Assembly: GCA_041660105.1 (NCBI GenBank)
Contig: JBAZWZ010000002.1
Span: 57,964 to 121,963 of the forward strand
DNA length: 64,000 nt
Direction: 5' to 3'
Source of the DNA: Minisyncoccota bacterium
Lineage (GTDB): Bacteria; Patescibacteriota; Minisyncoccia; Phycocordibacterales; UBA1550
Positions 25,370 through 52,059 of this stretch are shown here, in pieces. Positions within the stretch are counted from its first letter, which is position 1. Every line of letters begins with the position of its first letter. The notes under the pieces were generated by a model, which ran no database searches, was not told the origin of the DNA, and saw only the letters and a list, made by a program, of their open reading frames with translations. The position numbers and the translations under genes are program-made.

Positions 25370-26446
25370 CTAGATGCCTTCTTTTTTGAGTTCTTCGATG
25401 AGTTTTTCTGCGGTGCGGGAAAGTTTTGCAGGAGTTTTCACCTCAAGCTTGATGAAGAGATCACCACGCTTCTTGCTATCGTAGGGCACACCTTTTTCTT
25501 TTACGCGCAAGACTTCGCCTGACGAAACACCCTTGGGAATCTTGAGTTTAATCTCGCCATCGAGGGTTTCTACGGGATACTCCGCGCCAAGAATTGCATC
25601 AGTAAGTTTCACCTGAAGCGTCATCACAAGACTATAACCTTCTCTCTTGAAGACCTTGTGTGCTCCGACGTGAATACGTACATAAAGGTCGCCTGGCTTG
25701 CCGTTCTGAATGGCCTCGCCTGCTCCCGTAAGACGAACTTGCTCACCATTATTAATTCCAGCTGGTACACGGATGGTAATATTTTCTTCTTTGCGAAGCA
25801 CGCCTGCTCCTTTACAATTTGTACATTTTTCTTCAGGCACCTTACCACTGCCGTGACATGTCTCACACTCTCGCTCTTGTGCGAAGCTACCAAGTATTGT
25901 CCGCACTGTTTCTTGTGTACGCCCCTTACCTTTACATTGCGTACACTCTTTCGTTTTTGTATTTGGTTTTGCGCCGCTACCATTACACGTATCGCATTGG
26001 GATGTCTTTGTGATGCGAACTTTTTCTTCTACACCAAAGACTGCCTCAGAGAAAGAAATCTCGAGGTCCACCGCGATATCACGGCCACGACGCGCTTGTT
26101 GACGACGTCCACCTCCAAAAAAGTCACCGAAGATATCATTGAGATCAACACCCTCGAACCCTTGCTGACCTCCGAAACCACCCTGAAAACCGCTGAAGCC
26201 TGATGCGTCGAAACCGCCACCCTGCCCACCGAAGCCTTGATTTGGTCCTGCACTACCATAGGTGTCATACTGCTGACGCTTCTTCTCATCAGAGAGTGTC
26301 TGATATGCTTCGCTCGCCTCTTTGAATTTCTTCTCATCGCCACCCTTGTCGGGGTGATGCTGATGCGCGAGCTTACGGAACGCTTTTTTAATTTCGTCCT
26401 GAGATGCGCCTTTTTCAACGCCAAGAATTTTGTAGTAATCTTTCAT
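25370..26446 (-). CDS. dnaJ: chaperone DnaJ
   Basis: J domain ([10 protein letters not shown]...HPDK), a G/F-rich region and four CxxCxGxG repeats. Confidence 0.9.
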
Positions 26447-26456
26447 GAGCTTCCAA

Positions 26457-26548
26457 CATGTGACATTTAACAAGTGACATGTGACGAGCAACTTTTTCGC
26501 TATGCGAAAAAGTTGCTGTCAGTTGTCAGATGTCAGTGGTCAGTTGTT
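26457..26548. repeat. intergenic palindromic repeat element (TGACAT repeats + GCAACTTTTTCGC-tat-GCGAAAAAGTTGC hairpin + CTGTCAGTTGTCAGATGTCAGTGGTCAGTTGTT)
   Basis: Perfect 13-bp hairpin flanked by imperfect inverted ends (AACAAGTGACATGTGAC / GTCAGTGGTCAGTTGTT). It fills the dnaK-dnaJ spacer and related copies occur elsewhere in the window. Confidence 0.55.
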
Positions 26549-28442
26549 ATTTGTTCTCCCCCTCCTTGTACTCTGCGTCGTGCACGGTGCCTTCGCCTTC
26601 AGCTTTTGGAGCTTCACCTTCAGGAGCTTTTGCGCTCTCTGCCTGCTTCATCATTTCTTCACCAATCTTCGAGAGTTCATCTGAGAGCTCTTGTGAAGCC
26701 TTCTTCATCGCCTCAGTATCAGTACCTGTGCTTGCAGTCTTTGCAGCTGCAATCTTGCCCTCGACTGATGTCTTGAGGTCAGCAGAAATCTTGTCGCCGT
26801 TGTCACGAAGCCCCTTCTCTGCAGTGTAAACCATTTGCTCGAGATTGTTCTTAGTCTCTACGGCTGCGTGCTTGCGAGCATCCTCCTCAGCATTCATCTC
26901 AGCTTCTTTCTGCATACGAGCGATGTCGTCCTTTGAAAGTCCTGAGCTTGCTTCGATACGGATTGATTGCTCCTTGCCCGTGGTCTTCTCCTTGGCCTTC
27001 ACCTGGAGGATACCGTTGGCATCCACATCAAACGACACCTCAACCTGAGGAATCCCGCGTGGTGATGGTGGAATACCATCGAGAATGAAACGACCGAGTG
27101 ACTTGTTGTCGGCGGCCATTGGGCGCTCGCCCTGAACAACGTGAATCTCTACTGAGGTCTGGTTGTCTGCTGCAGTCGAGAATACTTGTGAACGTGATGC
27201 TGGGATCGTGGTGTTTTTCTCAATGAGCTTCGTCGCAACACTTCCAAATGTCTCGATACCAAGTGAAAGTGGAATAACATCGAGGAGCAAAACATCCTTC
27301 ACGTCCCCTTGGAGAATACCCGCCTGAATAGCAGCACCAATAGCAACCACTTCGTCTGGGTTGATTGAGCGGTTTGGCTCCTTACCAAAGAGCTCCTTCA
27401 CTGCGTTTACAATAGCTGGCATACGAGTCTGTCCACCAACCATAATGATTTCATTTATCTCCTCCTTCTTGAACGGAGAAGCAGCGAGAGCACGCTTGGT
27501 AATCTCAATAGACTTCTCAATGTACTCACGAGCGAGATCCTCGAGTGTAGCGCGAGAAATCTTCATGAGAAGGTGCTTTGGACCGTCTGAACCAGAAGTA
27601 ATAAATGGAATATTGATTTCAGCTTCTGTCGTGGTTGAGAGCTCGTGCTTTGCCTTCTCAGCAGCCTCCTTGAGACGCTGAAGTGCCATCACATCGGTTG
27701 AAACATCGATACCTGATTCCTTTTTAAATTCGCTCGCAATGTAGCCAATGATCTTCTGGTCGATATCCTCTCCACCCATGTGCACATCGCCGTCGGTCGA
27801 CTTCACTTCGATAACATCGCCACCCACCTCGAGTACTGACACGTCGAACGTACCACCACCAAAGTCGTACACCACAATCTTCTCATCCTTCTTTTTATTA
27901 AAACCGTATGCGAGTGCTGCAGCGGTAGGCTCGTTGATGATGCGCTTTACATCGAATCCTGCAATAGTTCCCGCATCCTTTGTTGCCTGACGCTGTGCGT
28001 CATTGAAATATGCAGGCACGGTGATCACCGCCTCAGTAATCTTCTCACCGAGCTTTGCCTCTGCATCTGCCTTGAGCTTTTGGAGTACCATCGCTGATAT
28101 CTCCTCTGGACGATACTGCTTGTCGCCCATCTTTACCTGCACGCCACCGGTAGGTGACTTCTCAAGAGTAAATGGCACGTTCTTTTTGTCACGCTGAACA
28201 CCCTCGTCTTCGTAGGTGTGTCCGATCATGCGCTTGATGCCGTAGAGTGTATTCTGAGGATTGGTTACGGCCTGACGCTTCGCGAGGAGTCCCACCAATC
28301 GTTCACCACTTTTTGAAACTGCGACAATCGATGGTGTCGTGCGTGCGCCTTCAATGTTTTCAATGATGCGGGGCTCGCCACCCTCAATGATAGCAACCGC
28401 GCTGTTTGTAGTACCCAAGTCAATACCTAAAATTTTTGCCAT
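26547..28442 (-). CDS. dnaK: chaperone DnaK (Hsp70)
   Basis: [25 protein letters not shown] and the full Hsp70 architecture, 631 aa. Confidence 0.95.
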
Positions 28443-28520: not shown

Positions 28521-29147
28521 TTACTCCGTCGGATGCCCGAACGCCTTCACCTTTGCGGGACGGATCACCTTGTTGTGCAAACGATATCCTTTTTGGATTA
28601 CTTCCGCCACGGTGTCTGCTTCTTTCTCTGACGGCGTCGGGATCTCCTCTATTGCAACGTGTAGTCGCGGATCAAACGCTTCCCCCACCTTGCCTATCTC
28701 CGTGAGACCACGGGACTCGAGAATAGAATACATTTGAGCGTAAATATATTCAACCCCCTTACGCCAGTTGGCATCTACCTTCTCCCATGCTTCTTTGTTG
28801 CCAAAGGCCATCGCGAACGAATCGAGCACAGGGATGAGGTCATCTACGAGCCCTTCGGCGGCAAACTTGATCATCTCACCGCGTCTCGTCTCCTCTTCCT
28901 TGCGGGCGTTTGCGAAGTCTGCGCGCATCCTCTGCCACCCATCGAGATAATCCTTTTTCTCCTTCTCGCAGGTCTTGAGCTTTTCGCGAAGCTTCTTCAA
29001 AGATTGAGCAGGATTCTCCATTTCTTCGTCATCCTCATATTGGAGGTCATCACTATACACAGCGTTTTCTTTTGTGTCAAGTGCCTCATTTCCTGCCTCC
29101 AAATCCCCTATTTTCTTATCTTTTTCTTCGTTTTCGTTGTTTGTCAT
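28521..29147 (-). CDS. grpE: nucleotide exchange factor GrpE
   Basis: Acidic N-terminus, a coiled coil and a C-terminal ...GWQRMRADFANARKEEETRR GrpE core. Confidence 0.9.
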   Translation of the reverse strand: MTNNENEEKDKKIGDLEAGNEALDTKENAVYSDDLQYEDDEEMENPAQSLKKLREKLKTCEKEKKDYLDGWQRMRADFANARKEEETRRGEMIKFAAEGLVDDLIPVLDSFAMAFGNKEAWEKVDANWRKGVEYIYAQMYSILESRGLTEIGKVGEAFDPRLHVAIEEIPTPSEKEADTVAEVIQKGYRLHNKVIRPAKVKAFGHPTE

Positions 29148-29257
29148 ATTGGATTCTTATCTTATCACATCAGGCAAATTGGTGGAACTTGACATCTTTG
29201 GCTCGTTTGGTAATATATCTACATAACGACGAAAAAGGATCCGAAAGGTCTCGTGCC

Positions 29258-29812
29258 TTAGGAGCCTTTTTCTTTTCTACTGGTGCGGGCAATATATGTC
29301 TTTATATTTTCCAGATTATCGTAATATTCCGACCCAATTCTCTTATACAATGACGAAGCTCGTTTTTTGTCGGGAAACAATATCTTCTTAAACCTTTTTT
29401 CCTCAATGAGAAAATCAACTATGGCTTTATAATCGCCATCCCCAGACACTAAAATTACATCCTGGAAATCTTCTTTTCGATATAATCTTTTCATTATCGA
29501 AAAAATAATATCAGAATCAACATTTCCCTTTTTGCCACTTATCAATGCTTCGCTGTGTTGTCTAAACTTTAGAATAAAGCCAGAACTTTGAATATATTCA
29601 TAAATCTCTTGCGCCCTTTCTGTGTCTTGAATATATCCAAGGTGATAGAACGCCACTTTAACATTATATTTGTCGGCAAGATAAACCCGAAATCTCTTTA
29701 GGTCAATCTTCCACGGATCGACTTCCCTCTTCGCTGTCCCCATGTGCAAATTCTGCCCATCGATGAATGCATAATTTTTGAGTTCTTTGTTCATGGTTTC
29801 AATTCCTAACAT
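29258..29812 (-). CDS. NYN-domain (LabA-like PIN-fold) putative nuclease
   Basis: AFIDGQNL...VDSDI...VSGDGDY acidic residue pattern of NYN domains. Start uncertain (29812 or 29794). Confidence 0.7.
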   Translation of the reverse strand: MLGIETMNKELKNYAFIDGQNLHMGTAKREVDPWKIDLKRFRVYLADKYNVKVAFYHLGYIQDTERAQEIYEYIQSSGFILKFRQHSEALISGKKGNVDSDIIFSIMKRLYRKEDFQDVILVSGDGDYKAIVDFLIEEKRFKKILFPDKKRASSLYKRIGSEYYDNLENIKTYIARTSRKEKGS

Positions 29813-29825
29813 TATCCCACCATTA

Positions 29826-29910
29826 CACATTAAAAGAAAGAGTGGATTGCAATGCAATCCACTCTTTCTTAATTTTGTCTCTACCAATGGAGTTTGAAAA
29901 TCAAAGGTAC
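29826..29910. repeat. 85-bp hairpin repeat, copy 1 (AAGAAAGAGTGGATTGCA / TGCAATCCACTCTTTCTT stem + conserved 45-bp tail)
   Basis: Near-identical to 31064-31148, with compensatory loop changes that preserve the stem. It lies just 3' of the Fic gene. Confidence 0.6.
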
Positions 29911-29948
29911 CTGACCGCTTATTCTTGAGAGTCCGTGGCGAATATTGA

Positions 29949-31010
29949 TTAAATCCTTACATACCTCGTTCCCCTGCCACGGCCGATACGCTTTACTTTT
30001 CCAAGCTCGACGAGACGCTCGAGGGATTTTCTTACGGTCGCGGTAACCATACCAGTTGCACTCGCAATTTCCGCAGGGCTCGCCTCGTGGACTGACGCAA
30101 AGAATTGTAGAACCTCGCTTTGTTTTGGTGATAGGCCTTCCTCGTGTTCCCTTTCCACAAGCGCTAGCGCTCTCACTGCCTGTTCCTTTACGATAGACAA
30201 AAAGAAATTAAGCCAAGGCACGATTGAACTATTTTCCGTCTTAAATGTTTTCTGTGCTTCACGCAGAGCAAGATAGTATTCATCTTTACGTTTCTCGACG
30301 AGTTGCTCGTGCGAGACGTATTGCACAAATGTATAACCAGAGCGAAGGAGAAGCATATTGGTGAGCACACGTGAAAGGCGCCCATTACCATCTTCAAATG
30401 GGTGAATCTTCAAAAACTCTATAAGGAAATTTGCAATAATGAGGAGTGGATGAAAGCGCTTCTTCTCAAGAGCTTCATGTGTCCACAGGACGAGCTCGGT
30501 CATTTCTGCGGGTGTCTGCCATGCGGGGGTTGTTTCGAACACAATACGTACGACTTTGCCGTCTTCGCCGAGCACTCCAACTACATTTTCTTTCTTTTTG
30601 TATTCACCCCTGTGTAGGTCGTCTTTGGTTGAATATTTGAGAAGTTCTTTGTGAAGCGATTGAATAGTACTTTCACGAAGTGCCAGTGTTTGAAAACTAT
30701 CAAAAACATTTTGCAGTGTTTCGAGGTAGCCTTGTACTTCCTGGGAATCGCGGTCTGCGAATTTAGTAATTGAAAGCCCCTGCATTATCTTTTTCACTTC
30801 CTCGTCAGAAAGTTTTGATCCTTCGATACGAGTCGATGCACCTGCTGATGTCACGAGAACCGACTTTCGAAGATTGGTAATTGCCTGTGGCGTCATACGA
30901 ACACCAACACGGAAAACACCACGGGCCTCGTCTATCGCTGCCAAAAGAGCCACAATATGAGGCTCGGGGGTGTTTATTCGGTGGTCAAATTTTCGTGCGT
31001 TATCGTCCAT
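29949..31010 (-). CDS. Fic-family protein (putative AMPylase) with C-terminal wHTH
   Basis: Canonical HPFEDGNGRLSRVL Fic motif. An N-terminal STRIEG (S/T-x-x-x-E-G/N) inhibitory-helix motif suggests class II. Confidence 0.85.
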   Translation of the reverse strand: MDDNARKFDHRINTPEPHIVALLAAIDEARGVFRVGVRMTPQAITNLRKSVLVTSAGASTRIEGSKLSDEEVKKIMQGLSITKFADRDSQEVQGYLETLQNVFDSFQTLALRESTIQSLHKELLKYSTKDDLHRGEYKKKENVVGVLGEDGKVVRIVFETTPAWQTPAEMTELVLWTHEALEKKRFHPLLIIANFLIEFLKIHPFEDGNGRLSRVLTNMLLLRSGYTFVQYVSHEQLVEKRKDEYYLALREAQKTFKTENSSIVPWLNFFLSIVKEQAVRALALVEREHEEGLSPKQSEVLQFFASVHEASPAEIASATGMVTATVRKSLERLVELGKVKRIGRGRGTRYVRI

Positions 31011-31063
31011 ATTTAGTGATACTATCTAACATATGAGATTTTATCACATTTTATTAGATAAAG

Positions 31064-31148
31064 CAAAGAGTGGATTGTCGAAGACAATCCACTCTTTCTT
31101 AATTTTGTCTCTACCAATAGAGTTTGAAAATCAAAGGTACCTGACCGC
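31064..31148. repeat. 85-bp hairpin repeat, copy 2
   Basis: Direct repeat of 29826-29910, upstream of the Fic start. Confidence 0.6.
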
Positions 31149-31254
31149 AATATTCTAGGTATCTACTCATACGGACGATAGTACTGTATAAGTAGATACC
31201 TGGTGCACAAAGCTGGATTTCCTTCACTTTTTTCCGTAGTTCCCTAGTATATAC

Positions 31255-31300
31255 AAAATTTTAGAGATGTGGATTTCAAAAGGGTGCCCAATCCCCTTTC
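31255..31300 (+). repeat. 40-bp direct repeat, copy 1 (AAAATTTTAGAGATGTGGATTTCAAAAGGGTGCCC...)
   Basis: Repeated at 32095-32134 and includes an AAAGGG...CCCTTT hairpin. It lies 50 nt upstream of a 240-aa ORF. Confidence 0.55.
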
Positions 31301-31347
31301 TTCGAGTTCTGGTAACCGAGGAGCTTTAAGAGTACACTTCCTAATAT

Positions 31348-32070
31348 ATGGCAGGAAGAAAAGAAAAATCTGTTTCTGGTTCAGACCTAGCACATCCTCA
31401 TGATGTCGGTGTTACTGTGACATTTAATCAGATAGTCATTCATCCAACTTACGGCACAATACTGCTACCTGTTTATGATCACACAGACTTTTACTTTAAG
31501 TCTGCCGAATCTGCTCTGATCGAAGCCAAAAAATATCATGAAAAAATACTATCCAGCCCCGTTAATAAATCAAATTGTCGAGTCGTTTATTCAGAAAGTA
31601 CAGACTTGCCTGCATTTTTTATGTTTTCACAAAATGTCGTTATATATTCATATTTAGCTCTTGAGTACTTTGCTATAAGTTGTGCTCAATCAGTTAATAA
31701 GGTTAAGGAGTGGGAAAAGAGAAGACTAGACCAAAAATTAAAATATCTTATACAACAGGAACTTGGTATCCCTCATCTTTCTCCTGATCTTTGTAGTGCG
31801 TTTGGTGAACTTGAAAATAGAAGACACTCTTTGAACCATCCGACTATAAAGAACATAACTAATGGTCACCCTACAGAATGGGATTCTGCACATCTTGCCT
31901 GGTTAATGGTTGGGAACTATGAAAAAGTATATTTATCTGCTAAGAAAATTTATGAGGAAATTCGTAAACCTCTAATAGAATACAATAAGAAAAAACCTCA
32001 GGGTGAAGTTACTCTCACTGGAGTTAAAAGAGGTATTAAGTTTGAAAACCCAGCCAAGAAATCTTTATGA
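31348..32070 (+). CDS. hypothetical protein (240 aa), no recognisable domain
   Basis: Clean ORF on the strand opposite its neighbours, flanked on both sides by the 40-bp direct repeat. Confidence 0.6.
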   Translation: MAGRKEKSVSGSDLAHPHDVGVTVTFNQIVIHPTYGTILLPVYDHTDFYFKSAESALIEAKKYHEKILSSPVNKSNCRVVYSESTDLPAFFMFSQNVVIYSYLALEYFAISCAQSVNKVKEWEKRRLDQKLKYLIQQELGIPHLSPDLCSAFGELENRRHSLNHPTIKNITNGHPTEWDSAHLAWLMVGNYEKVYLSAKKIYEEIRKPLIEYNKKKPQGEVTLTGVKRGIKFENPAKKSL

Positions 32071-32094
32071 AACAATGGTGTTACCACTTCACGC

Positions 32095-32134
32095 AAAATT
32101 TTAGAGATGTAAATTTCAAAAGGGTACCCCCTTT
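32095..32134 (+). repeat. 40-bp direct repeat, copy 2 (AAAATTTTAGAGATGTAAATTTCAAAAGGGTACCCCCTTT)
   Basis: Lies between the convergent 240-aa ORF and the protease gene. Contains the AAAGGGTACCCCCTTT hairpin. Confidence 0.55.
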
Positions 32135-32141
32135 ATCAAAC

Positions 32142-33518
32142 CTATTCACAAAAATATGACCCACCAGAAGTCTCAAGCTCCTTTTCTTTTGAGACTGTTA
32201 TTACTATTAAATCTTTCGCTAATTTAGTGTATTTTTCCTCTTCCTCCTGTAACGATTTTAAATAGATATCTGAAGCACTGGACTCCAAACCCTCCACGAA
32301 TTTAAGTGTACTTTCTGCTTCTTTTATTCTATAACCAATTGCTTCCTTTCGTAATTTTACGACATCACTCATGACACCAGCAATAGATGAGGGTATATTA
32401 TTTGGTATGAGACTAGGCAGACTATCAAATGTTTTGCTTGCTATCTTAAAATTAGTAAGTGCATTTTCTAGGTCAGTATGTGCACCATCAATATCAATGT
32501 CTCCTATCTTCTTATACACGAAAAGTCCATTTATTATTCCTTTATTCATGCTGTCTGAACCCCTGCTCAAGGTTGAAATAAAAGACAGATAATTTTGTTT
32601 TTGATTCTCGGTATAAGTACAACTGCTCGAATACGCCGTCGTCGAACCTGGGAGGATCGTATTTTTGCCTTGTTTCAAATACGGGAGCCATGTTTTTACG
32701 ATATCAACCGGAATAGCAAATTTGATTGTTTCTCCCAAAATGACACCCTCAATCTGTTTGCTACTATAAATTGCAGTATTAATACCTACCACCTGACCAT
32801 AACGGTTTATTAAAGGTCCACCACTATTCCCTGGGTGAATTTCAGCAGAAGTTTCAAGGTAATTTTCAATTCGTCGTGAAATCGTCCCTTCCTTGAAACT
32901 CACATCTCCTTCAAGTCCAAATGGAAATCCGAAAGTAAAAACATTTTCTCCTTGAGGAAGCGACTCTTCATCAGAATTTCCAAATTTAATTATCGACAAA
33001 CCATTTTTATTTACTTTCAATAGAGCCAGATCATGAAGTTCATCCCTGCCAACAACAGTTGCTAAGGCGTAATCACTATTACTAAAAGTAACATCAGCTC
33101 TGTTGACCCCACTAATAACATGGGCGTTCGTTAAAATATATCCATTGGGCTCTATTACAAAACCACTACCACTTCCTTCAGATGTTTTTATGTAAACTAC
33201 CGCAGGCTTTACCTTTTTAATTAAATCCGTATTACCCAAAACACCAGTTGACGTTGTAGTAACTTCTTTTTTTACGGAAGGAGCATTCGTATTAGATGAA
33301 TGTTGCCCCTTTTTAAGTTCATCAACTTCTTGGCGTAGTTTTTCAATTTCCGAAAGTTGGGGGGTTGTGCTCGCTTGCTTGTCGCTCTTGGAAGGATTTT
33401 CTGCTTGGTGGATTTGATATTGTACTACTCCAAAATATCCGCCACCCCCTAAAACCAAAACGCTCGCAACAGCCACGAGAAGTATTGGTATTGGGATAAA
33501 TCCTCCTTGATTTTTCAT
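32142..33518 (-). CDS. membrane-anchored trypsin-like (S1) serine protease with uncharacterised C-terminal domain
   Basis: N-terminal TM. GSGFVI...TNAHVI (His), DLALLK (Asp) and GNSGGPL (Ser) motifs. No obvious PDZ, and about 190 aa of unknown C-terminal sequence. Confidence 0.75.
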   Translation of the reverse strand: MKNQGGFIPIPILLVAVASVLVLGGGGYFGVVQYQIHQAENPSKSDKQASTTPQLSEIEKLRQEVDELKKGQHSSNTNAPSVKKEVTTTSTGVLGNTDLIKKVKPAVVYIKTSEGSGSGFVIEPNGYILTNAHVISGVNRADVTFSNSDYALATVVGRDELHDLALLKVNKNGLSIIKFGNSDEESLPQGENVFTFGFPFGLEGDVSFKEGTISRRIENYLETSAEIHPGNSGGPLINRYGQVVGINTAIYSSKQIEGVILGETIKFAIPVDIVKTWLPYLKQGKNTILPGSTTAYSSSCTYTENQKQNYLSFISTLSRGSDSMNKGIINGLFVYKKIGDIDIDGAHTDLENALTNFKIASKTFDSLPSLIPNNIPSSIAGVMSDVVKLRKEAIGYRIKEAESTLKFVEGLESSASDIYLKSLQEEEEKYTKLAKDLIVITVSKEKELETSGGSYFCE

Positions 33519-33540
33519 TTAAATTATTATCCCACAAATA

Positions 33541-33600
33541 CACATTAAAAGAAAGAATTGGACTGACTGCTGAAGACAGTCCGTCCAGTTCCTTCTTTTA
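33541..33600. repeat. hairpin element related to the 85-bp repeat (CACATTAAAAGAAAGA... nested stems)
   Basis: Shares the CACATTAAAAGAAAGA lead and a long imperfect stem. It lies upstream of the protease gene start. Confidence 0.4.
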
Positions 33601-33709
33601 TCATTATCCAATTGTGTATAGAAATTATAGGCACTTGTACACCTCCTTAATTTACTTTTGTAGTAATATACTATGGTAAATTACTACAAAAAAGAATAGA
33701 CTTTAGATT

Positions 33710-34540
33710 ATGGACCCAAATACCTATAAATTTCTCTACGACTGGCAGCAATTAATCGGTGCGTTTCTTGGACCATTTCTTGCAATTATTTTTTCTTCAT
33801 TAAGTTTTTATATTACGTGGTTAATTGGGAAATGGAGAAGATACAGAGAAACATTTCGAAAAATTGAGGTTCACACTACATACGCAATGAATAGCACGGT
33901 CTCAATGCAGGATAAACTTACAAGCTTTGTTAATCAAGCAAAAAAACTAGTAGCTGACATCAGGGGGATAACTAATCCAAATGAATTTGCTCTTCATACC
34001 ATTAATTTCCCCGCATTGGGTGAAATCCACCTTTTTTCAGAGGCGCCAGATATTGGAGTTAGAAGTTACTTTTTACACAACAAGCTTCTCTGGGCGCACT
34101 CAAGCACAAAAGATCTTAATTCAATACTGGGAACATTTTCAGACGGTTGGTCTCATATAATTAATTTAAATAATCGCCTCATCGACCTTACAAAAGACAC
34201 ACCAAATCCAACATTTCAAAGAGGACAATATGCAGAAAATATAGAAATTTTTTGTAAAGAAATTGAGAGGTTTTCTAATGATGACTTATCAAAAAACTTG
34301 ATAACACTTTCTCAAATAAAAATATACAACGAGATGCTGAGGCAGTCATATTTTGTCGGTAGCTATAATTTATGGAAGAATGAAGGCCTGAGTTTCAAGT
34401 ATTTTCGTACTTACTCAGAACATAAAGCATTTTCAAGAAACCTCGAAAGTATTGAAAGGATTGAGGGAATCATCCAAGACGAAACTACTAAACTTTTATC
34501 GGAAATTGAAGAAAGGCACAAAAAAATCAACAATATATAA
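33710..34540 (+). CDS. hypothetical membrane-anchored protein (276 aa)
   Basis: N-terminal TM helix (LIGAFLGPFLAIIFSSLSFYITWLIG) and a soluble remainder with no recognisable family. Confidence 0.5.
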   Translation: MDPNTYKFLYDWQQLIGAFLGPFLAIIFSSLSFYITWLIGKWRRYRETFRKIEVHTTYAMNSTVSMQDKLTSFVNQAKKLVADIRGITNPNEFALHTINFPALGEIHLFSEAPDIGVRSYFLHNKLLWAHSSTKDLNSILGTFSDGWSHIINLNNRLIDLTKDTPNPTFQRGQYAENIEIFCKEIERFSNDDLSKNLITLSQIKIYNEMLRQSYFVGSYNLWKNEGLSFKYFRTYSEHKAFSRNLESIERIEGIIQDETTKLLSEIEERHKKINNI

Positions 34541-34650
34541 AACATAGAACTGCAACCAGCAACCCTGCATTTTTTTAAATCTCCAAAAAACGTTCAAATA
34601 TTGAGATGCTTACGCTCTAAGGTTTATCTCGAGATGAATACGAGGCACGG

Positions 34651-34706
34651 AAAAAGCGCCCGCGGAAGGTGTACAAGTAGTACTCCGACCAAGGGCGCTT
34701 TTTTCG
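34651..34706. terminator. bidirectional terminator AAAAGCGCCC...GGGCGCTTTTTT
   Basis: GC stem flanked by an A-run and a T-run, between convergent rpsI and the hypothetical plus-strand gene. Confidence 0.6.
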
Positions 34707-34727
34707 TAACGAAGTAGTCGCTCGAGA

Positions 34728-38491: not shown

Positions 38492-38605
38492 TTAGCCCTG
38501 GCGCTGCTTGTGGCGAGGGTTCTCGCAGATAACACGAATACGGTCACCTCGTTTGACCGTCTTGCATTTCACGCAGATTTTTTTTACTGATGCTCGTACT
38601 TTCAT
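38492..38605 (-). CDS. rpmJ: 50S ribosomal protein L36 (37 aa; below the ORF-track length cutoff)
   Basis: Minus-strand translation gives [37 protein letters not shown], with the Cys/His zinc ribbon. It sits in the canonical position between infA and rpsM. Confidence 0.85.
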
Positions 38606-38719
38606 ATAATCATAAACTGGTTTACAGCGGATTGGTTTATACGGGTTTAACTGAACAAACCCCAAACTAGCTGATTCAAAAACAGTGAGAGTATTCTATC
38701 TCATTTCGAAATAAAATGC

Positions 38720-38925
38720 AAGGGCTTTGCCTCGCAAAGCCCACAACTGACAGCTAACACCGCTTACGCGGACATCTGACCGCTGATTTTCGCTTCGCGA
38801 AAATCAGCGGTAATGGTCAATTATCACACGTTTTTTGTCAAATGTTCCCCAAAATCCCCCGTGCCACTATCTAATAATCTATCCCCTGTCAGTTGTTATA
38901 TGTCAGTGGTCAGTTGTTCCCCTCT
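38720..38925. repeat. composite intergenic palindromic element (two hairpins plus inverted ACAACTGACAG ends, GTCAAATGTTCCCC module)
   Basis: Hairpins GGGCTTTGC-ctc-GCAAAGCCC and CCGCTGATTTTCGC-ttc-GCGAAAATCAGCGG. ACAACTGACAG at 38743 is inverted relative to CTGTCAGTTGTTATATGTCAGTGGTCAGTTGTT at 38886-38918. Related to the element at 26457-26548. Confidence 0.55.
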
Positions 38926-39139
38926 ATAAACGCTTGATGATACGACCTTTTCCGCCGTATGGGTCAAGCTTTACCATCACTTTGTCCCCGATGAGGACCT
39001 TGATGCGGTGGAGCCTCATCTTGCCCGCTAAGTAACAAATGATGTTTTTCTCCCCAGGAAACTCTACGCGGAACATAGCGCTCGGAAGCGCCTCTGTTAC
39101 TACTCCTTGTGTAAGTTCTTCTTTTTCGTTTTCTGCCAT
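38924..39139 (-). CDS. infA: translation initiation factor IF-1
   Basis: MAENEKEELTQGVVTEALPSAMFRVEF...GKMRLHRIKVLIGDKVMVKLDPY is the S1-like IF-1 signature. Confidence 0.9.
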   Translation of the reverse strand: MAENEKEELTQGVVTEALPSAMFRVEFPGEKNIICYLAGKMRLHRIKVLIGDKVMVKLDPYGGKGRIIKRL

Positions 39140-39292: not shown

Positions 39293-39721
39293 CTACGACT
39301 TCTTCCGTAGTGTAATGTATTTTGAAATAATGAGAATAAGAGAAACAACAAGAAATATAATAGAGAGAAACATAGAAGTTGGCTCAGCAATTTGCATGCC
39401 CATAAAACCACCAATACTATCCTTTTCCATAAAAATAATTAAGGAAATAATGACAAATTGAAGCGGTACCCATCGATAAGCAAATTTACGCCAAGACTGA
39501 AAAATTTCATCACGCGAAAATAATAAGATAAATACAACAAAAGTTAAAGGAACAGAGAACCAGATGATAGATTTATATATTGCTATGTATGTATGCTGAG
39601 GTAATCCTAGTAACGGCCACACGTCATAATAGTGTTGAAGAAAATACGCAATCAATATCCCCGCAATTCCAATAATTGCCATGTTTTTCTTTGTCACCCA
39701 CTTATTAATATTTTCTGTCAT
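39293..39721 (-). CDS. small 4-TM membrane protein (paralog A)
   Basis: Shares (E/D)EIFQSW(R/L)..A..WVPLQ and overall topology with the adjacent gene. Confidence 0.55.
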   Translation of the reverse strand: MTENINKWVTKKNMAIIGIAGILIAYFLQHYYDVWPLLGLPQHTYIAIYKSIIWFSVPLTFVVFILLFSRDEIFQSWRKFAYRWVPLQFVIISLIIFMEKDSIGGFMGMQIAEPTSMFLSIIFLVVSLILIISKYITLRKKS

Positions 39722-39726
39722 CTTAT

Positions 39727-40131
39727 TTATTGCATTTTATTTCGTAAGGTAGAATACTTTACAAAAATGAATACGAGGGACACGAAGAAGAATACACAAG
39801 AAAAAAATATGGACATTGACTCGACTGTGGGTGCATTAAAAAATCCACCGCCTACTGTGCCACGCTCTCTAATTGCCATAGAAACAACCACAAGAATTTG
39901 CAAAGGAACCCACAAAATAGCCAAACGAAGCCAAGATTTAAAAATCTCACCACGAAGAGGAGAGAGGACAATCATAATTACAACTAGCGCAACGGAAACA
40001 TGGAATAATGGTTCTGCTATAATTTTGTACACACTCCTCGAAAGTAGCGCATGTCTATATAGTGACTCTATACCAAACGCCAGTCCAACACCAATCAAAC
40101 TTCCAATAAAAAGGTTTTTTTTGTCGCCCAA
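39727..40131 (-). CDS. small 4-TM membrane protein (paralog B)
   Basis: Tandem paralog of 39293..39721, directly downstream of the giant surface protein gene. Confidence 0.55.
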   Translation of the reverse strand: MGDKKNLFIGSLIGVGLAFGIESLYRHALLSRSVYKIIAEPLFHVSVALVVIMIVLSPLRGEIFKSWLRLAILWVPLQILVVVSMAIRERGTVGGGFFNAPTVESMSIFFSCVFFFVSLVFIFVKYSTLRNKMQ

Positions 40132-40200
40132 TTCAATACTTTTTCCATAATTTTAGATAATTAATTTTTAATAACACACTTAACAAACTTCCCGCTGGCA

Positions 40201-43200
40201 TTACTCCTCAAATCTCACCCCCACAACATCCATCTGGGTAATACCATTCACGGTTGTAGTGATGGTAATATTTTCCTGAGTCGTCGCTAAGCTTTGGGGG
40301 AAGAAAAGCGAGAACTTCGTCTGCTTGCGGTCATTGTCATTGTCATGTTCTTCCTCCTGGACAACATTGAGCATAGTGAAATTACCCACAATGTTCGACG
40401 CGAATGGCACATCTTTCTTGATCCCTGTTACCTTCACTGTCATCTCAAGTGGTTGTCCTTTTTTGAGTTTCAGTGTGTCGTCTGATTTGAGCAGAAGTGT
40501 CGTACTGTGGTTGGTATCCTTATATTTGTACTGTAGCTGAGCTGTTTGCTGTTTGTCATAGATATTTACAATGCTCATCTCTGACGTTGTCTTGTTGGCA
40601 CTTGTATTGGTTATCCCAAGAGTGATTGGGGAACCCGCAAAATCCAACTCTTTTTCTAAGTCACGTCTTCGTTCTTCGTCTCCTTCGTGGTCTCTCTTCT
40701 TTTTAATAGAGTCTCGTTCCTTAGTGTTTCCTTTTGTAGTAGCGAGAGTAAGTGTGTAAGTCTTGAGCTCTTTGGTGCTCTGTGCAAACGATACCGTGAT
40801 TACTCCGTCTGTTGTAGTGACCGTTGCGGGGACAGTAGTTCCTATACTGTCTTTCACAGGTGAAGTTCCTATGCGGTAATACGTGTTTGATAGTATGAGG
40901 TTTACATCCCCCTTCCCTGCAACTGAGAACGGCAAATCAAATGATTCTTTTTCCCAAAGAGAATACTCGCTTGGAATGATGAGATTTACAAAGACAGTAG
41001 CGTCAAATGGCTTCACGTCGTCTTGATTTGGGACACCGTCACCATCGGGATCTGCGGCTGGAGAAGAGTAAATTGTTATGGCGATGCTTGAGGTTGCAAT
41101 ATTGCCTGCCATATCGTGTGCAGTTATTAATATGTTCGTAACTCCTGGCGCGAATATCTGCGTGAGAGGTACGTCTGTGGTAAATGTTGGGCTTGCATCA
41201 ATACTATCATTGACTGTCACGGGGACAGTAAGGAGTGTGCCTCCCGCAGTAAGTTGTTCCGCCGAGGTATCCGAAGCGAATATAGTTGGTGCGACGGTGT
41301 CGATATTGAAGGTGAGCGTTTTTATAGCCTCACTATTGCCACTGTTGTCTACTGAGTAGTATTGAAGCGTGGTACTGCCTTCTGTTGCGATAACAAGTGG
41401 AGTGCTTGTGCTGTATGTATTCCATGTAGTTCCGTTATCGAGAGAGTACTTTGTGTCTGCAACTCCTGATGACACCTCACCAAGAGGGGCGCCATCATCT
41501 GCGGTAAGAGCAACAGTAACTGCAGAAGTATAGTAGTCATTTGAGCCAAGAGTACCTGATGGCATCACAATAGTTACTGGTGCGGTGAGGTCGTTGCTTT
41601 CTTGTACGGACACATCGGTCCCCACGGTGTCGATAAGATATGTTTTTTCCTCTGTTGGAGCAATGGTTTGATTTTCCAAAATTGGAGACGTGAAGATTCC
41701 CACCGTTGGGTCAATGGTACGTGCGTAGAGTGAATATGAGTCGGTGGTCGTCGCCATGGTGCTTGCGAGCCCTGGGTTCTGCTTCAAGAACTCATCATTG
41801 TCATGCGCAGAGACATAGTACTTCACTTGAGTCCCTTCGGGGACGTAAACCCATTCTGGGATACCTTGGTTATCTCCCGAGACAATAGAGCCAGGGATTT
41901 GATTCTCGTACTCCCCTGTTACATAGTTCATGCCAATGTGTTTGCCGTCGGGGGTAATGGCGTGGAGATCGAGGTCAGGAAGGGTGTAGTCGAGAGGAGA
42001 AGATAACATAAATCCATTATTTCTATAACATGGTTCGAGGTTCTCGCAAGTTCTAAACATAGCACAACCAGCGTCGTAAGAGGTGACAACTGTAGACAAT
42101 GCAGAGAGGTAGTAAAGATAATTACCCCAAGTAATGACAGAGGCAGACCACAGAACCCAAATAGAAACTTTAACTATCTTTACTTTTCGCCATTGAATAT
42201 TAATTACACTCTTTTTTTTGTAGACAAATACTAATATTATGCTTAATACCAAAAACAAGAGCGGGGCAGGCATTTTTTTAACGGCGCAAATTCTTGTATC
42301 TAACCCTCCACCAGAAAGAAGTTCGTCTATTGGAATTGAATTCCTTGGGATAGTCCCCGGCCTGACTGGAGTCATAAACATATCACCCTTAATATACTGT
42401 AGGAAATCGTTCAAAGGGCTTAGGACTGATCCATTATAATTTTGATTAAATGATTCTTTTGGAATCTTGGTGATTGAAGTAGCAATCTCGTATTTTCCGT
42501 TAACTGTTTGGTCTCCTGAGGTAGAGAATTCTACAAACTTATCCAGGTCTTTGTAAGTTTCCCCAGACACAGAGAGCACACCGTCATCTACACTTATAGT
42601 GCTTGTAGAGTTTGTAGGACTGGAAGGAATTGTGATGGTTTGTTTTTTCCCCAAGAGAAAACCGCTCGCCCCAACACGATATAGCACCAATGATTTTTCT
42701 TCTGGAAGCGATGAATCCCATATTTTCAAATTTCTATTACGTGCCTCGAGAATATAATAATCATCGGTTGATGAATTAGTATTTTCTTCAAGGTTGTAGC
42801 GGAAAATAGTGTCACCCAACTCGCTCGTTTCCAGTGAATTAATCTGATATGTTCCGTATGCGGATTTTGGATGAATATCTTCGCTGAGCAAACCGAGAAA
42901 TTCTTGGGTAAAGGAGGTCATAAATGGAGGATCTGAGACATTGTTGTCGGCGACATTCCAGTCACCGTCCGCCATCAAATCCCACCTTCCTACATTGCCC
43001 ATTAGATAGAGATCGGGAGTTGGGGTGTTCTCTGGAGTTATTGTGGTTCCAACAGTGTGCCCCACCTCGTGCATCCACACACCAACTGGCTCGCGCTCTG
43101 AGATAATAATCTTTAGAGGTGGTTGCCAAAACAATATCGTACGCCCCCATGCACCAGTGGAAAGTTTACTTTTAGGAATTGTTGCATTCATTTGATCCGA

Positions 43201-44898
43201 CTCACCCGCATGAACAACTGCCGCAACATCAAACGCTCTTAAATCTATCGCGGATATAGTAATTGCATCCTCAACAAACTCATCCTCCTTATCATTCGCC
43301 CCATAATACGCCTCAGTCTTATCCGTCTTGTACCACAGCCCACCGTTATCAAATATCGTAAACGTAAAACTCAACGAACCGTGCGATACTTCTTTGTAGT
43401 AATCATTGATGCAGTAGGCGAGGTCGGTGTAGTATTCTTCGCCATAACCATTGGCGTAAGTCTTTTCAGGAATGAGCTTGCATGGCTGAGCGGTTGTTGA
43501 CGCTGTTGTGTGGGAAACATCTACTGGCTCCGCGAGAATGATAGCGACGTTAATGTTTTTTGCTGTGCTTGTCGGTGCGAGCCAACCATCTTGTTTTGTC
43601 CATGGCAGATTATCTTGTCCACCAGGGAAAACGTAGGCGGAATCACAGATGTTGTCATTATTTGCATCCCTACAGCCTTCACTTGCTGTATCAAAGTTGC
43701 TCCAGTAGTTGCCACCTATTGGAGGAGCAAGGTTGAATATATCGGTATTTGTGTAGCGAGTATCAATATAAACCTGCGTTGGGTTATTGAGAAAGTTATT
43801 ATTGTATATTTTGTTAATAATAGGCAGACTCCACGGGAAGTTGGATATCCCGCTTACAGCGTTTTTTGAAAAAGTGTTACCAGACAAGGTATTGCCGCTG
43901 GAAACAAAAAAATCGATTCCATTCTTATAGTTATTTAATGCGTTATTCCCGGAAAGGGTGTTGTTATTGGAACCAAAAAGGAAGATTCCGAAAGAATTAT
44001 TTTGAGCAGTGTTGCCAGTCAGAGTGTTGTTATTGGCACCACGGAGAAGGATTCCGCGGCTAGAATTAAATACAGTATTCCTGGTTAGGGTGTTGTTGGG
44101 GCCTACAAGTTCGATTCCATTCGTATTATTCGATATCGTATTGTTGACCAGAGTGTTATAGCTAGAATTGTAGACAAATATTCCATCCGTAAAGTTACTA
44201 ATATTCAAATTCCTGATTGTCACACGCCCTCTCCCGTTAAGATAGACACCGTTCCCCGTGTTATATCCTGTCAGCGTATGGTGGTTACCATCGAGAGTTA
44301 CATTATTACTGTCTATCTGGATGGTTTCGGTGAGGTCTGTGTTCATCGTGCAAACCCTTGTAGTATAATTCCAGCTACCAATCTGAGTACAGTCTCCGCC
44401 CGTTGCGTTGTCGCTAATGAATTTCGTTGAGTGGCGAGGTTGAATAAATACTATATGTGTCTTCGATAAATCTTGTGAGTATGAGTAGCCACCACTTGCA
44501 TCAGTAACAAACTGGTCTAAATTGTGATAGCTGTCTTCATACTTATAGTACGTTGTCGATGTGGCAAAACCAGAGAGGGTGACTTGAGTTGATGTCGCCG
44601 TAGATGAGGCCGATGACTCAACTGTTAATGTTACCATTTCTGGTACGGAGTCCATTTTTAATTTAATCTGCTCTGAACTGTCGAGGGTGACATTGAGATA
44701 TTGACTGTCTGTGATAGTGAAGTGTGTATCATCCCCCTCAGTTGTGCCTGGCATAACAAATGGCTGGGGTATATCAAATACAGGAGGTGGAACTGATTGC
44801 GCGTATGCAAAAGAATTAAATCCAAACAATAAAGCAAGCGCAAACACCGCGCGCACAATAAGACGGATGATAATCTTTTGCATAAAATTGACGGTCAA
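40201..44898 (-). CDS. giant (1565 aa) secreted/surface protein with parallel beta-helix repeats and an HEXXH zinc-metallopeptidase-like (M6/InhA-like) region
   Basis: N-terminal signal peptide. Repeated NNTLTGN/NNTLSGN beta-helix units. VWMHEVGHTVG...VGRWDLMADGDW. A hydrophobic segment (LLFLVLSIILVFVY) mid-protein and Ser/Thr-rich linkers. Confidence 0.75.
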   Translation of the reverse strand: MTVNFMQKIIIRLIVRAVFALALLFGFNSFAYAQSVPPPVFDIPQPFVMPGTTEGDDTHFTITDSQYLNVTLDSSEQIKLKMDSVPEMVTLTVESSASSTATSTQVTLSGFATSTTYYKYEDSYHNLDQFVTDASGGYSYSQDLSKTHIVFIQPRHSTKFISDNATGGDCTQIGSWNYTTRVCTMNTDLTETIQIDSNNVTLDGNHHTLTGYNTGNGVYLNGRGRVTIRNLNISNFTDGIFVYNSSYNTLVNNTISNNTNGIELVGPNNTLTRNTVFNSSRGILLRGANNNTLTGNTAQNNSFGIFLFGSNNNTLSGNNALNNYKNGIDFFVSSGNTLSGNTFSKNAVSGISNFPWSLPIINKIYNNNFLNNPTQVYIDTRYTNTDIFNLAPPIGGNYWSNFDTASEGCRDANNDNICDSAYVFPGGQDNLPWTKQDGWLAPTSTAKNINVAIILAEPVDVSHTTASTTAQPCKLIPEKTYANGYGEEYYTDLAYCINDYYKEVSHGSLSFTFTIFDNGGLWYKTDKTEAYYGANDKEDEFVEDAITISAIDLRAFDVAAVVHAGESDQMNATIPKSKLSTGAWGRTILFWQPPLKIIISEREPVGVWMHEVGHTVGTTITPENTPTPDLYLMGNVGRWDLMADGDWNVADNNVSDPPFMTSFTQEFLGLLSEDIHPKSAYGTYQINSLETSELGDTIFRYNLEENTNSSTDDYYILEARNRNLKIWDSSLPEEKSLVLYRVGASGFLLGKKQTITIPSSPTNSTSTISVDDGVLSVSGETYKDLDKFVEFSTSGDQTVNGKYEIATSITKIPKESFNQNYNGSVLSPLNDFLQYIKGDMFMTPVRPGTIPRNSIPIDELLSGGGLDTRICAVKKMPAPLLFLVLSIILVFVYKKKSVINIQWRKVKIVKVSIWVLWSASVITWGNYLYYLSALSTVVTSYDAGCAMFRTCENLEPCYRNNGFMLSSPLDYTLPDLDLHAITPDGKHIGMNYVTGEYENQIPGSIVSGDNQGIPEWVYVPEGTQVKYYVSAHDNDEFLKQNPGLASTMATTTDSYSLYARTIDPTVGIFTSPILENQTIAPTEEKTYLIDTVGTDVSVQESNDLTAPVTIVMPSGTLGSNDYYTSAVTVALTADDGAPLGEVSSGVADTKYSLDNGTTWNTYSTSTPLVIATEGSTTLQYYSVDNSGNSEAIKTLTFNIDTVAPTIFASDTSAEQLTAGGTLLTVPVTVNDSIDASPTFTTDVPLTQIFAPGVTNILITAHDMAGNIATSSIAITIYSSPAADPDGDGVPNQDDVKPFDATVFVNLIIPSEYSLWEKESFDLPFSVAGKGDVNLILSNTYYRIGTSPVKDSIGTTVPATVTTTDGVITVSFAQSTKELKTYTLTLATTKGNTKERDSIKKKRDHEGDEERRRDLEKELDFAGSPITLGITNTSANKTTSEMSIVNIYDKQQTAQLQYKYKDTNHSTTLLLKSDDTLKLKKGQPLEMTVKVTGIKKDVPFASNIVGNFTMLNVVQEEEHDNDNDRKQTKFSLFFPQSLATTQENITITTTVNGITQMDVVGVRFEE

Positions 44899-44922
44899 CT
44901 TTTACTATTAATAATGCTAAAA

Positions 44923-45035
44923 GTATACCCCCACACCTACTTTTTACCTAGTAGGTTATACACAGTTAATATTATTGATACTATCTATGAAATTGTGTCG
45001 ATGATCAATGTGGAAAAGTAGGTGTGGGGGTATAC
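44923..45035. promoter_or_regulatory. 22-bp perfect inverted repeat GTATACCCCCACACCTACTTTT ... AAAAGTAGGTGTGGGGGTATAC enclosing about 68 bp (with an internal ACCTAGTAGGT palindrome)
   Basis: Located 25-135 nt upstream of the giant gene ATG. The arms contain TATACT. Confidence 0.5.
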
Positions 45036-45047
45036 CACGGAGGCGCG

Positions 45048-45119
45048 CAAAAACGTCAGAGGGCGGGATTGCCGAAGGCAGTCCCGCACTTTGACGTTTT
45101 CTGTCAGATGTCAGTTGTG
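45048..45119 (-). terminator. terminator hairpin (CGTCAAAGTGCGGGACTGCC-ttcg-GCAATCCCGCCCTCTGACG + TTTTT) fused to a partial ACAACTGACATCTGACAG repeat module
   Basis: Read on the minus strand directly after the stop of the 45132..46481 gene. Confidence 0.5.
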
Positions 45120-48430: not shown

Positions 48431-48470
48431 GTTTACCTTTTTATCATATTTACTGCGTGTTGTCATTGAA

Positions 48471-48539
48471 CTCGAAAATTAAAACAAAGGACCGCCCTTT
48501 TTGAATTCTCAAGGGCGGTCCTTTGTTTTAATTTTCGAG
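48471..48539. terminator. 27-bp perfect inverted repeat CTCGAAAATTAAAACAAAGGACCGCCC ... GGGCGGTCCTTTGTTTTAATTTTCGAG
   Basis: Fills the rpsP-tlyA spacer. The 14-nt loop is TTTTTGAATTCTCA. Confidence 0.6.
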
Positions 48540-48545
48540 TGTCGC

Positions 48546-49870: not shown

Positions 49871-49988
49871 TTATGATGTACCAGATTTCATCGTACCATA
49901 AATTTACTAAATAACAATTACTTAGAAGTATGCGTGGTCAGTTGTCCCAAAATGTCATCTGTCAAATGTTCCCCAACTGTGCTATCTT

Positions 49989-52026: not shown

Positions 52027-52059
52027 AAGCCCGTGGCGCATCGCGCCACGGGCTTTTGT
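52027..52059. terminator. bidirectional terminator AAGCCCGTGGCGC-atc-GCGCCACGGGCTT + TTTTG
   Basis: Perfect 13-bp stem between convergent rnr and gmk. Confidence 0.6.

Follow-up and report, generated by a model that had tools for sequence, protein, structure and literature searches.

Palindromic heptad repeats at gene ends in a Yonathbacteria genome, with a putative role as intercistronic RNA hairpins

Records of heptamer repeats go back to 1990, and the repeats have been regarded as an oddity of cyanobacteria and a handful of other groups. The elements considered here, for which the name heptad-repeat palindromes is proposed, occupy four intergenic sites in a 64-kb stretch of DNA (contig JBAZWZ010000002.1 of assembly GCA_041660105.1; hereafter, the window) from Candidatus Yonathbacteria (Patescibacteria), an uncultured groundwater host. 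Copy A is the site at 26457-26548, in the dnaK-dnaJ spacer, copy B lies between infA and rpmJ, copy C follows the stop codon of a 449-aa gene, and copy D lies upstream of rnr, in the region between that gene and a divergent 78-aa gene. Several described systems bear on them. Direct repeats of TAACTGA are present in marine Beggiatoaceae, some Cyanobacteria, and Bacteroidetes, mostly just ahead of start codons and also in ribosomal-protein operons (PMC4679880); MacGregor (2015) proposed S1, Csp, or CsrA-type binders for them (PMC4679880). Three tandem heptanucleotides, known as STRR, were reported in Calothrix PCC 7601 (as cited by Rehm et al., who review earlier work; PMC4692102), and heptamers are, according to Mrazek (2007, as cited in PMC4679880 and PMC4692102), the most over-represented long simple repeats in prokaryotes, a feature ascribed to polymerase slippage. 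The class 3 elements of Geobacter metallireducens consist of five tandem heptanucleotides with the consensus MTYCTGA (PMC2700814). A preprint on Nostoc indicates that heptamer arrays affect the expression of recF and recO (bioRxiv 10.1101/2022.06.06.494920). Among palindromic families, a REPIN is an inverted REP doublet that forms a hairpin (PMC3116915). A literature search that combined Patescibacteria or the Candidate Phyla Radiation (CPR) with heptamer terms returned no report of heptamers.

The window elements have the features of the heptanucleotide-repeat class, namely 7-nt tandem units, an intergenic location, and an ACTGA or CTGA core (AACTGAC, CACTGAC, ATCTGAC), and they are a palindromic form of known heptanucleotide repeats (STRR/LSSR, TAACTGA, MTYCTGA) in a new host group. 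Like TAACTGA, they are built on a 7-nt tandem unit with an ACTGA core (AACTGAC versus TAACTGA), come in 2-6 copies per set, are strictly intergenic, lie near start or stop codons, occur in ribosomal-protein operons, and have a patchy phylogeny (PMC4679880). The TAACTGA repeats of Beggiatoaceae, however, form 169 direct sets with a single indirect repeat and stand mostly in sense orientation upstream of start codons (PMC4679880), whereas the window arrays are inverted, hairpin-forming pairs in a Patescibacterium; here NNCTGAC arrays come after stop codons, the start codon being preceded by the inverted arm instead. Sense-upstream placement is common in the arrays of other phyla. As in the cyanobacterial STRR/LSSR, period 7 dominates the intergenic tandem repeats of Parcubacteria loci, and arrays of the identical units AACTGAC and CACTGAC occur in the STRR hosts Nostoc, Anabaena, Dolichospermum, and Calothrix; the available descriptions of STRR, in contrast, usually present them as long direct arrays suited to fingerprinting, without a palindromic stop-to-start layout or an apex hairpin. 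The Geobacter MTYCTGA elements are similar in their CTGA-core heptads, about five units per set, multiple copies, and proposed regulatory function, but they were read as DNA sites of a global regulator, their description includes no hairpin of inverted arrays, and their flanking trinucleotides differ (PMC2700814). REP, BIME, and REPIN sequences are likewise extragenic and palindromic, lie at gene ends and within operons, and form inverted doublets that fold in mRNA or single-stranded DNA; their units, however, are imperfect palindromes of 20-40 nt, flank a RAYT gene, and exist in tens to hundreds of similar copies (PMC3116915). The arms of the window elements are tandem 7-mer arrays that are not themselves palindromes, although, once paired, the inverted arms yield a hairpin.

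All four sites hold genuine non-coding elements that are related to one another. Within the window the motif GTCAGTTGT occurs seven times against 0.59 expected, a count that none of 100 shuffles reached (0/100), and all of its copies (7/7) fall within loci A-D, in intergenic DNA. The motif GTCAAATGTTCCCC was found three times at up to 2 mismatches (0.39 expected), while GACATCTGAC by itself was not significant (7 versus 3.9 expected, matched by 10 of 100 shuffles). Loci A and B have a 33-nt direct repeat in common (26516-26548 versus 38886-38918; 94% identity; blastn E=5e-9), loci B and D a 17-nt identity (TGTCAAATGTTCCCCAA, 38836-38852 = 49960-49976), and loci A and C a 14-nt identity. No further copy was recovered from the 64 kb by a sensitive self-search, and the tally for the window is two full copies (A and B) and two partial ones (C and D). 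A first-pass annotation of this DNA had described one palindromic, intergenic family at gene ends; its sequences are present at all four sites it listed, and both the enrichment of GTCAGTTGT and the repeats shared among loci bear the family out. The link it drew between 49934-49974 and 38836-38855 corresponds to the 17-nt identity above. The chromosomal orientation of the four elements is identical, with GTCAG on the plus strand, and the plus strand of the window has negative GC skew throughout; MacGregor noted a comparable uniform chromosomal orientation for Microcystis repeats (PMC4679880).

Each arm of the elements is a tandem 7-nt repeat with a TGAC/GTCA core, the unit being NNCTGAC on the transcribed strand, with GTCANNT as its counterpart in the opposite arm, and the overall design is a tandem array, then a short perfect apex hairpin, then an inverted array. 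The modules listed in the first-pass annotation are thus present as sequences but are not arbitrary words: chains of GTCA/TGAC spaced 7 nt apart exist at loci A-D and nowhere else in the window, and Tandem Repeats Finder (TRF) reports period 7 at 26456-26485 (4.3 copies) and at 26517-26547 (4.4 copies), both in locus A. Even the GTCAAATGTTCCCC module lies in heptad register (GGGGAAC ATTTGAC AAAAAAC), parallel to the start of locus B (GGGGAAC AACTGAC CACTGAC). On the minus strand, locus A reads TAA-CAACTGAC CACTGAC ATCTGAC AACTGAC AG-CAACTTTTTCGC ATA GCGAAAAAGTTG-CTC GTCACAT GTCACTT GTTAAAT GTCACAT GTTGGAAGCTC-ATG. Its 5' arm holds a GTCA chain of 4 with period 7, its 3' arm ends 6 nt ahead of the dnaJ ATG (26446-26444), and it has no discrete termini (coordinates of all parts are collected in Table 1). 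Locus B is of the A type: its arrays come in the same order and its apex motif is the same, but it has in addition an internal segment of 75 nt and a small hairpin within the 3' arm. Because array order and apex hairpin are common to both, copies A and B were duplicated as one unit. The apex form TTTTCGC-NNN-GCGAAAA is exact at loci A and B only; the two described hairpins of this form are the sole exact copies in the window, and other lineages have 0 exact copies. The inverted ACAACTGACAG termini of copy B were also confirmed (38743-38753 and 38886-38896), the former being the final 11 nt of its 3' arm and the inverted partner of the latter. The extent first assigned to this element, 38720-38925, needs trimming: the element is real, but 38722-38742 is a separate terminator-like hairpin. 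It is followed by a promoter-like TTGCAT-N17-TAGAAT ahead of rpmJ (38693-38721), which is kept in relatives. This hairpin and its counterpart in one relative, L098, resemble an inverted duplication of the local GGGCTTGC.

Both A and B lie within co-directional gene strings (dnaK-dnaJ and infA-rpmJ) and are therefore almost certainly transcribed, in agreement with the earlier placement of two elements inside operons. As RNA, locus A is predicted to fold into one interrupted stem-loop (-43.4 kcal/mol, z=-8.2) that spans from the dnaK stop codon to 7 nt ahead of the dnaJ ATG, with base pairs between the TGAC/GUCA cores and small internal loops at the variable trinucleotides. The predicted fold of locus B (212 nt; -77.5 kcal/mol, z=-6.0) includes long-range terminal pairing of ACAACUGAC with GUCAGUUGU, and that of locus C reaches -44.5 kcal/mol (z=-6.3). 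A promoter scan found no sigma-70-like promoter inside the elements, and no intrinsic terminator was predicted at loci A and C; the one at 38722-38742 adjoins element B and is outside it. Across the whole window, the covariance models of Rfam 15 gave no family at gathering score and, at E up to 1, nothing but weak matches to generic hairpins (miRNA precursors). A promoter common to locus D and copy B (GTCAAATGTTCCCCAA…TATCT) was considered and rejected, the spacing being off by 9 nt and the -35 match poor.

The same spacer was compared in the dnaK-dnaJ regions of eight Yonathbacteria lineages and 80 further Parcubacteria contigs (88 loci, 633 kb; individual loci are given L numbers). In the closest relative, L088, whose dnaK has 91% nucleotide identity, the spacer holds a plain GC hairpin and no heptads, and plain GC hairpins are found in L095 and L097 too. 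In L091, the spacer reads CAATTGAC AATTAAC CATTGAC … GTCACAT GTCACAT GTCAGTT GTCACAT, which is clearly the same kind of element as that of the window. The spacers of L098 and L099 consist of (AATATNG)4, a centre, and inverted (NATTCAA)3-5, and L089, L140, L154, L164, L165, and L170 follow the same design with still other heptads. As the heptad sequence differs among relatives while the design recurs, it is structure rather than sequence that recurs. The arms hold 4+4 units in the window, 3+4 in L091, 4+5 in L098, and 4+3 in L099, the lineages being too distant to reveal simple 7-nt indels; the same strain, found in two public metagenomes (two short contigs, via InfA), is identical in sequence. 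About a third of the 43 dnaK-dnaJ spacers of 40-200 nt are periodic at lag 7, and the remainder mostly contain a stable plain hairpin (median z about -3 across these spacers, with many at -5 to -8). In spacers of the heptad type, a single hairpin covers 85-98% of the spacer and ends at most 8 nt ahead of the ATG, while in plain-hairpin spacers the hairpin sits at the 5' end and leaves 14-57 nt unpaired. A clear Shine-Dalgarno sequence is missing before dnaJ in most relatives. The infA-rpmJ spacer of relatives contains only a conserved promoter and leader, and element B, about 180 nt long, is specific to the lineage of the window. As a separate observation, L088, L095, L097, L100, and L104, all with plain-hairpin spacers, have a -10-like TATACT 9-10 nt ahead of the dnaJ ATG, which hints at mRNAs that are leaderless or have a very short leader.

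Heptad periodicity extends well beyond this spacer. In the Parcubacteria loci, TRF found 44 arrays of period 7, compared with 8 of period 6, 10 of period 8, and 14 of period 9. Self-identity of at least 75% over 28 nt was seen at lag 7 in 17 of 424 intergenic regions and in none at lags 5, 6, 8, 9, or 10; period 7 is the only strong intergenic periodicity across the 88 loci. These lag-7 arrays number 17 in 57 kb of intergenic DNA versus 4 in 573 kb of coding DNA. An inverted partner within 130 nt accompanies 19 of the 44 period-7 arrays, versus 2 and 5 in two composition-matched controls. In a wider search, the 18-mer ACAACTGACCACTGACAT was located at 87 loci in species-representative genomes (about 17 expected for a database of this size, assuming uniform base composition), spanning Nostocales, Acidobacteriota, Planctomycetota, Desulfobacterota, Bacteroidota, and CPR lineages (Curtissbacteria, Levybacteria, Yonathbacteria). 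At most of these loci the 18-mer lies within an array of 3-17 units, nearly all AACTGAC, CACTGAC, or TACTGAC, and at 34 of the 87 an inverted array is nearby. Many of these arrays end 0-26 nt ahead of the start of a same-strand open reading frame (ORF); with such a start no more than 60 nt downstream, 35 loci are sense and 10 antisense, figures that rest on crude ORF calls and are indicative only. In other Parcubacteria, heptad arrays of the (TTGAAAA)n type were seen directly before a tRNA gene downstream of dnaJ (L157 4144-4354; L158 1136-1300; L165 4087-4306).

These findings are best explained, with somewhat more confidence than doubt, by heptad-repeat palindromes acting as intercistronic RNA hairpins that were built by 7-nt slippage and palindromisation. 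Selection most likely acts on RNA structure between dnaK and dnaJ, to judge from the compared spacers, since sister lineages keep a stop-to-start hairpin but change its heptads, and those that lack heptads still have a plain hairpin there. Within the polycistronic mRNA, the two arms would pair through their TGAC/GUCA cores into a long interrupted stem-loop that extends from the upstream stop codon to near the downstream start. Such a stem may protect the 3' end of the upstream cistron by blocking 3' exonucleases, and may attenuate read-through. Both effects are classical for REP/BIME sequences, regarded as stabilisers of the 3' ends of upstream cistrons, and for the stem-loops of the Bacillus subtilis dnaK operon. 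Because the base of the stem pairs nucleotides just after the dnaK stop with nucleotides just before the dnaJ start, dnaJ initiation could depend on opening of the stem base, for example by ribosomes terminating on dnaK, and this dependence would set the DnaK:DnaJ ratio. A role in operon polarity or mRNA stability, as the first-pass annotation suggested, is a reasonable inference. As to origin, the arrays would lengthen and shorten by replication slippage in a 7-nt register, and the second arm would arise from inverted duplication, possibly when the template is switched at a hairpin; a visible example of local inverted duplication may be the 38722-38742 hairpin with its L098 counterpart. Whole elements would occasionally be copied to other intergenic sites, as suggested by A and B, which hold two modules in the same order.

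Several points weigh against this interpretation. The proposed function is drawn from position and predicted folding alone. The fold of locus D is not significant (z=-1.3) and the L091 element folds weakly (z=-0.6), so structure cannot explain everything. The hairpin of locus A has no U-tract and hence is not a canonical intrinsic terminator. The same CTGAC heptads occur in distant phyla, which a purely structural or slippage-based model leaves unexplained and which hints at sequence-specific recognition. The element count covers 64 kb of this genome, and the loci taken from relatives were sampled around dnaJ, which partly accounts for the apparent preference for the dnaK-dnaJ spacer.

An alternative is that the elements are non-autonomous mobile DNA of the REPIN or MITE (miniature inverted-repeat transposable element) kind, moved by a tyrosine transposase (RAYT/IS200-type) or another transposase elsewhere in the genome, with any effect on expression being incidental. 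The shared module order of A and B would fit such movement, and copy B looks like an insertion: it is lineage-specific at a spacer that is short in relatives and has perfect terminal inverted repeats of 11 bp. REPINs, moreover, are defined as inverted, hairpin-forming REP doublets (PMC3116915), and genes resembling RAYT are common in relatives. A single RAYT-like Y1 gene lies a few kb downstream of dnaJ in L089 (15166-15852), L091 (11908-12585), L097 (14402-15076), and L098 (12075-12752), with a best match to NF047646, 'REP-associated tyrosine transposase' (E about 1e-19, below the curated cutoff). In L089, L091, and L098, a repeat with a GGGGACAG(T/C)CAC core (GGAATGGGGACAGCCACCATT in L091 and L098, GGAATTGGGGACAGTCACGATT in L089) stands beside this gene in one or two inverted copies, while the flanks in L097 differ. 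This repeat, however, is distinct from the heptads: GGAATGGGGACAGCCACCATT is identical in L091 and L098, whose heptads are not the same, and shows no dispersal across the 21-kb loci. No Y1/RAYT or other transposase homologue was detected in the window, tblastn with the Y1 proteins of relatives had no match there or at the 87 cross-phylum loci, and no longer element with the same ends exists in the window as a possible MITE parent. The first-pass annotation had called the elements REP/MITE-like; their palindromic form and their intergenic position at gene ends bear this out in part, but membership in the REP/REPIN or MITE families is not supported, as the heptad arms are not REP-type palindromes, no link to a transposase was found, and no target-site duplication surrounds copy B (flanks …GCCC and TATATG…). 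The copies also have modules in common rather than being near-identical whole elements, and the same architecture is made of unrelated heptads in sister lineages, which fits local generation better than transposition. Mobility is accordingly considered improbable as the main explanation.

A similarly low probability is given to the view that the elements are neutral by-products of mutational bias, arising from 7-nt slippage and hairpin-templated inverted duplication and tolerated where harmless. Their turnover is rapid, as the heptad-free spacer of the closely related L088 illustrates, their distribution among lineages is patchy, and heptamers have been described as the commonest long simple repeats and ascribed to slippage (Mrazek 2007, as cited in PMC4679880 and PMC4692102). 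Arrays are nearly absent from coding sequence, in which steps of 7 nt would cause frameshifts, and this too is in keeping with tolerance. Against neutrality, nearly every dnaK-dnaJ spacer of 40-200 nt holds a stable hairpin, so that structure seems to be required at this site; stop and start codons mark the exact limits of the heptad hairpins; and inverted partners are far commoner than in the controls.

It has also been proposed, for TAACTGA (PMC4679880) and for the Nostoc arrays (bioRxiv 10.1101/2022.06.06.494920), that heptamers are recognised by a protein, and the window arrays might by extension be sites for a single-strand nucleic-acid-binding protein that takes up about 7 nt per domain (cold-shock-domain, S1, or similar), together defining a post-transcriptional regulon. 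The recurrence of AACTGAC and CACTGAC units in at least seven phyla, the sense orientation of cross-phylum arrays often 0-26 nt ahead of a start codon (the same 35 versus 10 loci, from crude ORF calls), and the lack of a clear Shine-Dalgarno sequence before dnaJ in most relatives would all suit such a protein. At the same spacer, sister lineages nevertheless have heptads of unrelated sequence (GAATAT, GAAATTT, AATTACG, and others), and several types coexist in L091, which does not fit a single sequence-specific protein; the window arrays, moreover, are mostly paired with an inverted partner and hence not single-stranded, and no candidate protein was identified. This possibility is regarded as quite doubtful.

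That the dnaK-dnaJ element is a heat-shock operator or RNA thermometer in place of CIRCE/HrcA is scarcely credible: it directly precedes dnaJ, no hrcA adjoins grpE-dnaK-dnaJ in the window, and CIRCE gave 0 matches there at up to 3 mismatches, but the same element follows infA and another gene and so is not specific to heat shock, it lies inside the operon rather than at a promoter, its spacing is 7 nt and not 10 nt, a stem of -43 kcal/mol would not be expected to melt on a mild temperature shift, and HAIR and CtsR-box matches in the window are at chance level with none at the elements, consistent with the earlier statement that the dnaK region shows neither CIRCE nor HAIR. The operators of CtsR are themselves heptad direct repeats, with a GTCAAA core.

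The window DnaJ is 82-92% identical to proteins from Yonathbacteria metagenome-assembled genomes, and no tRNA or tmRNA was found in the window. Two regions of it are missing from relatives. The first is an insert of about 5.6 kb (29148-34727) between rpsI and grpE, which abut in relatives; it encodes a Fic protein with a winged helix (29949-31010), an NYN-domain protein (29258-29887), and three others, and contains repeated 5' regions (29855-29918 = 31085-31148, 98%; 29811-29841 = 33526-33556, 94%; 31254-31289 = 32094-32129, 92%). The second comprises about 6 kb (39293-45035) between the 449-aa gene and infA, encodes a repeat-rich, surface-type protein of 1565 aa along with two small membrane proteins, and is preceded by a perfect 22-nt inverted repeat (44923-44944/45014-45035, 69 nt apart) that adjoins locus C. 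Other features of the window include very long perfect intergenic hairpins with stems of 30 bp and 23 bp (48470-48540 and 2954-3003), two similar GC-rich terminator-like hairpins around one gene (52027-52058 and 52716-52747), and a 127-nt direct repeat with 87% identity (59826-59952/60941-61067) that probably reflects two adjacent paralogous genes. Near locus D, TGcTATCTT abuts the first ATG of rnr (49980-49991), hinting at a leaderless mRNA or one with a very short leader. A site at 3753 (TGTTCCCC) was rejected as a further copy of the element, as it is a coding-looking region without heptads.

Table 1. Parts of the four heptad-repeat loci and adjacent genes, in window coordinates.
Feature	Coordinates	Strand	Description
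Locus A 5' arm	26516-26546	minus	CAACTGAC CACTGAC ATCTGAC AACTGAC AG; begins directly past dnaK stop (26547-26549)
Locus A apex	26489-26515	minus	CAACTTTTTCGC-ATA-GCGAAAAAGTTG; 12-bp perfect stem
Locus A 3' arm	26453-26488	minus	Inverted array CTC GTCACAT GTCACTT GTTAAAT GTCACAT GTTGG
Locus B 5' arm	38886-38922	minus	GGGGAAC AACTGAC CACTGAC ATATAAC AACTGAC AG; 1 nt past infA stop (38924-38926)
Locus B internal segment	38811-38885	minus	75 nt, not in copy A; second short array GGGGAAC ATTTGAC AAAAAAC at 38830-38850, the GTCAAATGTTCCCC module of the first-pass annotation
Locus B apex	38780-38810	minus	CCGCTGATTTTCGC-GAA-GCGAAAATCAGCGG; 14-bp perfect stem
Locus B 3' arm	38743-38779	minus	GTCAGATGTC, small hairpin CCGCGTAAGCGG (38760-38771), GTGTTAG CTGTCAGTTGT
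Terminator-like hairpin beside locus B	38722-38742	minus	GGGCTTTGC-GAG-GCAAAGCCC; context, not part of the repeat
Locus C array	45101-45118	minus	ACAACTGAC ATCTGAC AG; 13 nt past stop of 449-aa gene
Locus C long hairpin	45050-45100	minus	AAAACGTCA...TGACGTTTT; immediately 3' of array
Locus D partial copy	49937-49974	.	GTCAGTTGT, then GTCATCT GTCAAAT GTTCCCC; divergent region of 78-aa gene (minus) and rnr (plus)
dnaJ	25370-26446	minus	
dnaK	26547-28442	minus	
grpE	28521-29147	minus	
infA	38924-39139	minus	
rpmJ	38492-38605	minus	

A bolder and rather unlikely extension of the hairpin reading is that clade-wide, continually renewed stop-to-start hairpins serve as an evolvable rheostat in Patescibacteria and several other phyla, the CTGAC unit of at least seven phyla being owed to recognition by a conserved factor and not to common descent. 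Slippage by 7 nt in either arm would then alter the length of the stem and so tune coupling or attenuation, for example the DnaK:DnaJ ratio, and the polymerase, the ribosome or S1, or a cold-shock-domain protein would be candidates for the factor. Even should the finding prove ordinary, it would help annotation, since the elements are probably neither REPs nor MITEs, nor operators or known RNAs. For the heptamer repeats in general, the same CTGAC units are now seen in the ultra-small, streamlined genomes of Patescibacteria, where non-coding DNA is scarce, as inverted arrays that often fill a spacer exactly from stop to start, with heptads that differ among sister lineages at one site. This pattern speaks for selection on structure or for a highly specific mutational mechanism, and not for selection on sequence, and it makes the dnaK-dnaJ spacer a defined, conserved site at which the heptamer question can be tested.

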